64,000 nucleotides of DNA from Styela clava. Lineage: Eukaryota. The notes beneath the pieces are model-generated. The model did no database searches. It was not told the DNA's origin and worked only from the letters and a program-made list of their open reading frames with translations. The position numbers were made by a program, and so were the translations under genes. The DNA is taken from the NCBI RefSeq assembly GCF_964204865.1, contig NC_135254.1, positions 10,478,001 to 10,542,000 of the forward strand, given 5' to 3'. Below, piece after piece: positions 35,601-36,377 of the stretch. Each line of letters opens with the position of its first letter. The first letter of the stretch is position 1.

Positions 35601-36377
35601 GACATAATCTACAAATTAAGTAGACTTATTACAATAAAAGTTTGTTACCTATTAATCGTTGACAGACAAATCCAGTCGGTGCATTCGCAGCGCATTTGAC
35701 GTCATACCACGGTAGATTTGCATAATACGTGTGAAACCACCCCATAGCAACACAAGGTTCAGATTTATCAACATGAGGTTCTCCCAAGTTCCAGTTATCG
35801 TAGGTTAGTTCTGAATTGTCCTTCCATTTGAAGGTATTGCTCGTGCCAACCTCCTTTAATCCTATATAAAATCCATAGGGTTGTCCTGTAGACAATAAAA
35901 TGCCTTAGAGAAAAAAAAAGTTTTGTCGTGTGTAATATCTATTGTATGTAAACATGATTGGTTGGGACTGTTGGACATTATTGTAAACATGTACAAATAT
36001 ATGAACACTGACGATTCAAGAATAAAAACAAAAATTCGGGGGAAAACGTAAAATGTCCTATATACCTGAAGTAGCTGAGACTTGATTTTGAATAAACGTT
36101 TGAATCTCGCTCGTTTTTATCATTGCCATCTCACCATCATTGTTTTTACAGAATTTTTCACCATCAACATATGATTTTATATCATCTTTTCCAGATACGT
36201 AGTATTGGTAACTTCCAAATGCATTCCACTCACCTCTATCTGGTCGCAAAAATAAAGGGTTCAGGAATAAGCACATAATTTGAAAGACGTGAGGATATAT
36301 AGTATATGCCAACCTGCGCTAACGACGGCAACCATCCAAGCAAATATTCCAACGAATATCAAAAGATTCTCCTTCAT
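32683..36377 (-). pseudogene. LecB: CTLD-TSP1-stalk-TM-Tyr-tail receptor paralogue with a premature stop in the TSP1 exon (pseudogene or secreted lectin)
   Basis: Exons 36377-36314 (MKENLLIFVGIFAWMVAVVSA), 36239-36066, 35885-35649, 34253-34126, 33714-33519, 33340-33235, 32965-32683. TGA at 34227-34225 where LecD has TGG. Confidence 0.8.

Follow-up and report, generated by a model that had tools for sequence, protein, structure and literature searches.

The exon at 35,649-35,885 of the 64-kb stretch of Styela clava DNA that was analysed (the window) is, on balance, probably the loop-bearing head exon of a 24-gene receptor array, in which the loops have been diversified, the tail of the gene under study (LecB) stems from recombination, and the genes form a paired-receptor-like cluster. 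Read from its sequence, the cluster looks like a young, selected set of head-swapping lectin receptors resembling a paired system. The initial annotation compared LecB with its paralog LecD and contrasted a hypervariable ligand-binding exon with an invariant tail; as worded, this finding is half recombination artefact and half real. The features that bear on it are collected in Table 1.

Table 1. Features of the lectin genes in the window, with strand and supporting evidence (pN and pS of the loops are from 21 paralogs)
Feature	Position	Strand	Evidence or description
LecB second CTLD exon (exon under study)	35649..35885	-	AG/GT ends, open frame, phase 1-1, 78 whole codons; Pfam Lectin_C E 1.5e-9
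Codons 33-43, long loop round EPH, top variability of the exon	35755..35787	-	pN 0.260 vs pS 0.195
Codons 49-55, loop linking the last two strands of the binding lobe	35719..35739	-	pN 0.245 vs pS 0.064; codon 54 posterior >0.9 in all four models
WYD motif (replaces WND) and variable codon 63	35695..35709	-	Sequence; codon 63 posterior >0.9 in all four models
LecB signal-peptide exon	36314..36377	-	Agrees with database model P0016
LecB first CTLD exon, conserved, internal control	36066..36239	-	pN/pS 0.38; LRT 0
LecB TSP1 exon	34126..34253	-	WSxWS-type motif by sequence; splice ends; 33714/34126 joint in RNA-like contigs
In-frame TGA in LecB (TGG in LecD), truncation at 167 aa	34225..34227	-	Sequence; P0016 stops at the same point
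Recombination switch in LecB	33814..33856	.	U06/U07-like 5', LecD-like 3'; 148 vs 6 informative sites 5', 12 vs 94 3'
LecB Thr-rich stalk exon	33519..33714	-	Sequence; 7- and 11-nt deletions, net in frame
LecB transmembrane exon	33235..33340	-	Sequence; helix without charged residue
LecB tail exon, class T1 (YEKI-x6-YKEM), same as LecD tail	32683..32965	-	Sequence comparison
Tract common to 25,621-34,270 and 50,843-59,403 (92-95%)	25621..34270	.	Decarboxylase gene and lectin 3' half; binned identity
VWA exon that marks the T2-type upstream region, about 2.9 kb 5' of LecB	39311..39499	+	Sequence
LecC, seven exons, T1 tail	45812..48948	-	Sequence; open spliced frame
LecD, seven exons, T1 tail	57789..61615	-	Sequence; open spliced frame
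LecD second CTLD exon, comparator	60792..61028	-	Sequence
LecA, distant single-copy relative, head about 50% identical, Tyr-rich tail	3420..13926	+	Sequence; P0072

Structure of the lectin gene array

A search of its own genome located 24 copies of the exon at C5:10.51-10.84 Mb and one weak match elsewhere; the genes form a tandem array of 24 lectin genes over about 330 kb in this ascidian. The units, named U01-U24 (U01 being LecB, U02 LecC, and U03 LecD), were annotated from 40 stretches around the window. The initial annotation knew three of them, namely LecB, LecC, and LecD, and had neither the in-frame TGA of LecB nor the second class of tail. Every unit has a signal peptide and two CTLD exons, usually with TSP1, and many carry inner CTLDs and extra TSP1/stalk blocks. 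Two 3' modules that cannot be aligned with each other complete the genes: T1, present in 15 units, consists of a Thr stalk, a membrane helix, and a tail of about 95 aa; T2, with a tail of about 275 aa, is present in eight, and one unit has neither. The unit structures match the database models, and in contigs of two runs guessed to be RNA (pooled, hence not gene-specific) exon bins are covered and most intron bins are empty. RNA-like contigs also span three predicted introns, at joints not assignable to one gene. The database model of LecC ends in an intron (164 aa) and that of LecD starts inside the CTLD, despite the open spliced frames of both genes.

In LecB the TGA lies 27 bases into the exon that follows the second CTLD exon, so the canonical transcript would not make the tail; the product is predicted to be a secreted head or a decaying transcript. 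Splicing from the CTLD exon straight to the membrane exon would be compatible with the exon phases. Raw reads carry a Trp codon at this site in nine of nine cases, in a run that covers single-copy DNA less than 1x and whose reads may be paralogous. Two further copies are broken besides U01, namely U08 by a frameshift and U18 by a stop. U20 and U21 (G000:C5:10,783,173 and 10,796,559) are identical in all compared exons and in the proximal upstream region, and may be a very recent duplication or an assembly duplicate. Their identity is what speaks for a wider reading in which part of the array is an assembly artefact, with two haplotypes in tandem; this is hardly credible, since the average difference among the other heads is as much as about 13%, against a reported heterozygosity of 1.72% for the species, and the gene architectures differ.

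Several structural observations accompany the array. U09 (G000:C5:10,619,666-10,635,072) contains three repeats of an inner CTLD with a double TSP1-stalk and encodes 1456 aa (P0001). A remnant TSP1 half-exon lacking an AG acceptor lies 3' of the TSPc exon at window 47,190-47,260 (-) and in 16 other copies; in LecC, reading through into it keeps the frame for 29 codons. A third CTLD receptor, which has EPN and a long tail bearing four YxxM and ending in TKEV, is intact at G000:C5:10,848,800-10,852,310 (+) and broken in six array copies (10.542, 10.680, 10.707, 10.742, 10.758, and 10.814 Mb). The window also holds a GIY-YIG endonuclease frame in a LecA intron (11,335-12,189, -) between 453-bp inverted repeats of 99.6% identity (arms 10,877-11,329 and 12,186-12,638), which is likely a retroelement fragment; a 124-bp unit repeated four times in tandem (copies 99% alike) 5' of LecC (49,623-50,118); a short high-copy interspersed repeat (27,972-28,085; also at 19,225, 14,981, and 53,183); and a small two-helix membrane protein with a Pro/Tyr-rich tail and no Pfam match above the cut-off (20,818-21,378, -).

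Single-copy relatives of the head on other contigs (L025/L065 on C18, P0083, and P0132) also have tyrosine-bearing tails. The closest matches of the single-domain type, five of the five looked up, are from Styela clava (38-50% identity), and no orthologs in other ascidians appear among the matches named, all 15 and 8 of which belong to the same species. A literature search, with most subscription journals outside its scope, found no publication on the cluster. In PMC7540406, 25 'MBL' genes are reported for Styela clava, and some array members may be among them.

Recombination in LecB

The identity of the LecB and LecD tails is the outcome of recombination in LecB and not of constraint. The initial annotation had the comparison itself right: the two genes differ at 18 of 78 whole codons of the second CTLD exon (its own count was 18 of 79), their tail exons are identical (100% over 284 nt, with 0 of 86 aligned codons differing), and the loop motifs read EPN/WYD in LecA, EPH/WYD in LecB, EPS/WYG in LecC, and EPS/WYD in LecD. 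The tail is, however, not invariant as it had been called. Identity is confined to the B/D pair, where synonymous sites and the 3' flank are identical too; the other 14 of 16 T1-type tail exons are 88-93% identical to the LecB tail, and LecB and LecC differ at 16 of 86 tail residues. In the array as a whole, the tails and the second CTLD exon are similarly variable, with pN/pS of 0.68 for the T1 tail (16 rows) and 0.73 for the exon (24 rows). Between LecB and LecD, synonymous changes amount to 0 of 53 sites in the tail and about 14 of 86 in the head (p = 0.001), and the exon has diverged more (28/234 nt) than its flanking introns (31/450, i.e., 17/180 and 14/270; Fisher p = 0.03).

LecB is identified as a recombinant because the informative sites of the gene body (260 in all, counted before 33,856 and after 33,814) side with U06/U07 on the 5' side and with LecD on the 3' side. 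Its second CTLD exon differs from that of U07 by 3 nt, from that of U06 by 8, and from that of LecD by 28; its tail is 0 nt from the LecD tail and 18-20 from the next one. The caveat attached to the initial annotation, that conversion of the 3' halves might contribute to the contrast between head and tail, had thus named the true cause, a recombinant LecB. The B/D tail sits inside a tract that is shared along with the neighbouring decarboxylase gene. This pyridoxal-dependent decarboxylase gene accompanies LecB and LecD in two near-identical copies (window 27,206-31,513 and 52,414-56,619, +), and no further copy was present elsewhere in the 452 kb examined.

The initial annotation's own version, in which LecB and LecD are sister genes whose invariant tail is held by purifying selection and whose heads have diversified for different sugars, does accommodate 18 of 78 differing residues beside 0 of 86. 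It is nonetheless very improbable: the tail lacks synonymous change, the LecB head is far closer to U07 than to LecD, LecB stops before the tail, and tails vary across the array. Synonymous identity and the switch sites of LecB together refute a tail kept invariant by purifying selection.

Probable selection on the second CTLD exon

The loop codons of the second CTLD exon are likely under diversifying selection. This part of the earlier proposal stands for the binding face, by an analysis of 21 paralogs, and not from the B/D pair on which it had been based: over the whole exon that pair gives a dN/dS of 0.128/0.138, not above 1, and positive selection was rejected on its pairwise dN/dS (0.93, not significant). 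By comparison with the second CTLD exon, pN/pS is 0.38 in the first CTLD exon (23 rows) and 0.41 in the inner CTLD (13 rows).

Site models were fitted to 21 of the 24 rows; U21 was omitted as identical to U20, U08 for its frameshift, and U18 for its stop. The codon models were our own code, with naive Bayes posteriors. The likelihood ratio of M2a over M1a was 19.8 (GY F3x4), 28.5 (MG F3x4), 26.9 (MG F1x4), and 22.7 (GY F61), and that of M8 over M8a 20.6. Under the four frequency models, omega was 2.7-3.2 at 15-20% of the codons of the exon, mostly in the binding loops, and codons 1, 33, 40, 54, and 63 had a naive posterior above 0.9 throughout, 33 and 40 being those of the long loop (33-43). 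Leaving out LecB did not change the result (M2a/M1a LRT 21.0). Among the controls, the first CTLD exon gave 0, the intron between the CTLD exons, read as codons in three frames, 3.0, 2.4, and 0 (the downstream intron was not run because it aligned poorly), the T2 tail 1.4, and the TSP exons 0.4-4.3. The inner CTLD reached 13.9-15.3, at 4-12% of codons. Depending on the model, T1 membrane plus tail gave 0.7-14.0 and the stalk 1.8-15.6, with values of 8-16 for stalk and tail under two of the four; positive selection in the stalk and T1 tail was rejected, being present in GY models and gone in MG models.

Relaxed constraint with frequent conversion, under which the loops of redundant copies drift neutrally and the site test is inflated, is the main rival to selection, and several observations lend it substance. 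Recombination is real, as the PHI test (p = 0.001 for the head as a whole, 0.45 and 0.023 inside the exon) and the chimeric LecB show, and several copies are broken. Because recombination is present, nulls without positive selection were simulated. With heavy conversion, 3 of 26 runs and a further 1 of 12 (4 of 38) reached an LRT of 28.5, the null maximum being 33.5. In the real data, a site class with omega above 1 is present under all four models. Moderate conversion reached 28.5 in 0 of 12 runs. In the best-matched null, whose tree shape was taken from the intron (tree length 3.44 vs 3.52 in the real data, incompatibility 0.36 vs 0.43), 0 of 32 runs reached the observed LRT, the maximum being 11.9, and the highest M0 omega of the 32 was 0.67, against 0.83 in the real data.

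A tree-free test, in which every variable codon was set neutral and pS was at least the observed value, also bears on neutral drift. The best 7-codon window (pN 0.333) was matched by 11 of 656 null runs in one set and by 0 of 699 in the other, and the top-15-codon mean pN by 74 of 656 and 20 of 699. Loop pN, in a region picked after viewing the data, was 0.254, higher than in any of the 699 runs (fully neutral expectation 0.14-0.16), as was the window maximum, which allows for that choice; loop pS (0.195 and 0.064) showed no elevation. Residue counts per site were discarded as a test, being significant with coalescent trees and not once the star-like tree shape was matched. Neutral drift is accordingly an unlikely account of the loops, and we favour diversifying selection.

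In the long loop, T1 genes have a pN of 0.309 and the six core T2 genes one of 0.066. Variation at codons 49-55 is equal in the two classes, and the site test comes to 23.0 for T1 and 5.0 for T2. Comparisons of probable alleles were made on protein only. P0006 and P0007, which carry one gene label and are inferred to be alleles, differ at 21/79 positions in the second CTLD exon, at 10/58, 11/58, and 15/83 in the other CTLD exons, and at 6/279 in the tail; the same kind of comparison for three single-copy relatives gives 0/80, 2/81, and 0/72. In a second probable allele pair (exon 8/79, rest of the ectodomain 11/524, tail 7/92), the contrast between head and tail is absent (8/79 vs 7/92, p = 0.60).

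Fold and putative ligand

The head falls within the C-type lectin-like domains (Pfam Lectin_C 39 bits vs a cut-off of 22.6); its model is a confident CTLD (pLDDT 85.7), and the best Foldseek matches are CTLDs. Sequence and secondary structure place the variable stretches in the long loop and in the segment separating the last strands of the binding lobe. PMC7618208 describes Ca2+ site II as made up of EPN, WND, and a Glu of the loop, and variability as general for the long loop. None of the 24 heads has the Asn of EPN or of WND, so that the canonical Ca2+-dependent mannose-type motif set does not occur among them; the commonest site-II set is E-S-E-Y-D (9/24). LecA retains EPN with WYD instead of WND, and 12 of 13 inner CTLDs have EPN, but with WHT. 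With neither EPN nor WND in any head, a sugar specificity is putative, and the ligand may equally be a protein.

Tail classes and exchange of heads

Both classes of tail carry candidate signalling motifs. Of the 16 T1 tail exons, 15 have YxxI-x6-YxxM (1.3% by shuffling), none has a canonical ITAM, and three have ITIM-like words; T1 has no charged membrane residue. The T1 tails of U06, U07, U20, and U21 share an early stop after YIN, with loss of the last nine residues. YEEI suits Src SH2 and YxxM suits PI3K. By motif only, a strict ITIM occurs in six of eight T2 database models (one to three each, two models being truncated) and ITSM-like words in four, with ITIM and ITSM counts modestly above shuffles (612 and 124 of 10,000). 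V/I-x-Y-A-x-V words are repeated up to four times in T2, with conserved spacing.

On these two non-alignable 3' modules stand heads that are about 87% identical on average in DNA, i.e., similar binding domains on different tails, as in paired receptors. Six of the eight T2 heads do cluster; a single clade of T2 heads was rejected in four trees (AU p 0.003, 0.002, 0.0002, and 0.02). In seven cases a T2 gene is the immediate 5' neighbour of a T1 or tail-less gene. A T2-type upstream region with a VWA neighbour occurs in 8 of 15 T1 genes, LecB included, and these eight look like promoter-head/tail fusions: they join T2 genes in several distinct groups, at least two starred clades among them. The VWA-domain exon itself occurs in 14 copies, some 2.9 kb 5' of lectin genes, as far as C5:10,830,587. 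The AU tests, the upstream swaps, and the LecB switch each show linked genes exchanging heads. Protocadherin-like splicing of tail-less heads to a shared tail was considered and rejected, the units having their own T2 module.

The heads might be selected without the tails being opposite switches, if these were generic Tyr-rich docking or uptake tails of receptors for adhesion, scavenging, or gamete/larval recognition. The lack of a canonical ITAM and of a charged membrane residue in T1 would suit such a role, Tyr-rich tails with YxxM occur in LecA and other relatives too, and TSP1 and mucin-like stalks suit adhesion. Against it stand the repeated T2 words with their conserved spacing and the presence of one head on two unrelated tails that duplicate as neighbours, a layout described for CEACAM and Siglec pairs; we regard generic tails as improbable.

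Comparison with known receptor systems

The fold of the array head is that of Ly49, DCIR/DCAR, and Dectin-2 (Foldseek Dectin-2, DCIR, and CD23, E about 1e-10), and an inhibitory/activating pairing is described for Ly49. NK-complex and dendritic-cell C-type lectin receptors are type II proteins; the array genes encode type I proteins with a signal peptide, so the likeness is likely convergent. With mannose receptor CRD4 and DC-SIGN (PMC7618208), the heads have in common the fold, the Cys pattern, and the position of the cis-Pro, and many have acidic residues at three of five site-II positions, like canonical EPN lectins, from which they differ in lacking the EPN or WND Asn in all 24.

Siglec-5/14 and CEACAM1/CEACAM3 (PMC4042635, PMC2832619) resemble the array in having similar heads on tail types that are opposite, in the array by prediction, and in head exchange; the SIGLEC14/5 promoter-swap fusion described there parallels the promoter-head/tail fusions. 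The T1 tail may correspond to the intrinsic ITAM-like tail of CEACAM3, and secreted by-products, predicted in the array, would be a further likeness. Unlike these, the array head is a C-type lectin fold, not Ig, on TSP1 and Thr-rich stalks. Unlike vertebrate paired receptors, the array lacks a charged membrane residue for a DAP12-type adaptor and has many genes per class, and its signalling is predicted from motifs. Closer in phylogeny, the Fester family/FcoR of the styelid Botryllus schlosseri (PMC12582321) are likewise type I receptors that are clustered, vary in copy number, and bear ITIMs besides other tyrosine motifs, and their copy change by gene pairs is echoed in the array. FF/FcoR are, however, described as Ig-superfamily receptors with one signalling partner per pair, whereas both members have a lectin head and a tail in the array, where the ectodomain is CTLD/TSP1 and no Ig-type ectodomain of the FF/FcoR kind was found; the name Styela does not occur in the text of PMC12582321. 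An ITAM-bearing hemocyte glycoprotein of Halocynthia roretzi (PMC5465252) offers another ascidian receptor whose activation motifs act via PI3K; it is not described there as a lectin array.

Proposed mechanism and implications

Amplification of a T1-T2 cassette by unequal crossover is, we infer, the simplest account of the array. Unequal crossover between homologous heads would duplicate T1-T2 gene pairs, and crossover within the shared head would fuse a T2-position promoter and head to a T1 tail, while selection would fix loop changes that alter binding by the head. T2 tails may recruit SH2 phosphatases (inhibitory), and T1 tails may recruit Src/Syk/PI3K-type proteins (activating or endocytic); with such tails the cluster would work as paired immune receptors. 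A bolder version is conceivable, which we put forward tentatively: an independent NK-complex-like system made from type I C-type lectin/TSP1 proteins, with activating T1 receptors whose loop is fast (pN 0.31), inhibitory T2 receptors whose loop is near-fixed (pN 0.07), crossover that would rewire specificity, promoter, and sign of the signal, and secreted decoys, e.g., LecB.

For the analysis of gene families, LecB and LecD illustrate that a contrast of variable head and constant tail between two paralogs can be pure recombination history. The cluster is a lectin-headed candidate for inhibitory/activating receptor pairs in tunicates beyond Botryllus allorecognition. Its host is a solitary, invasive, and easily kept ascidian, in which named residues, two tails, and visible head-tail swaps are at hand.
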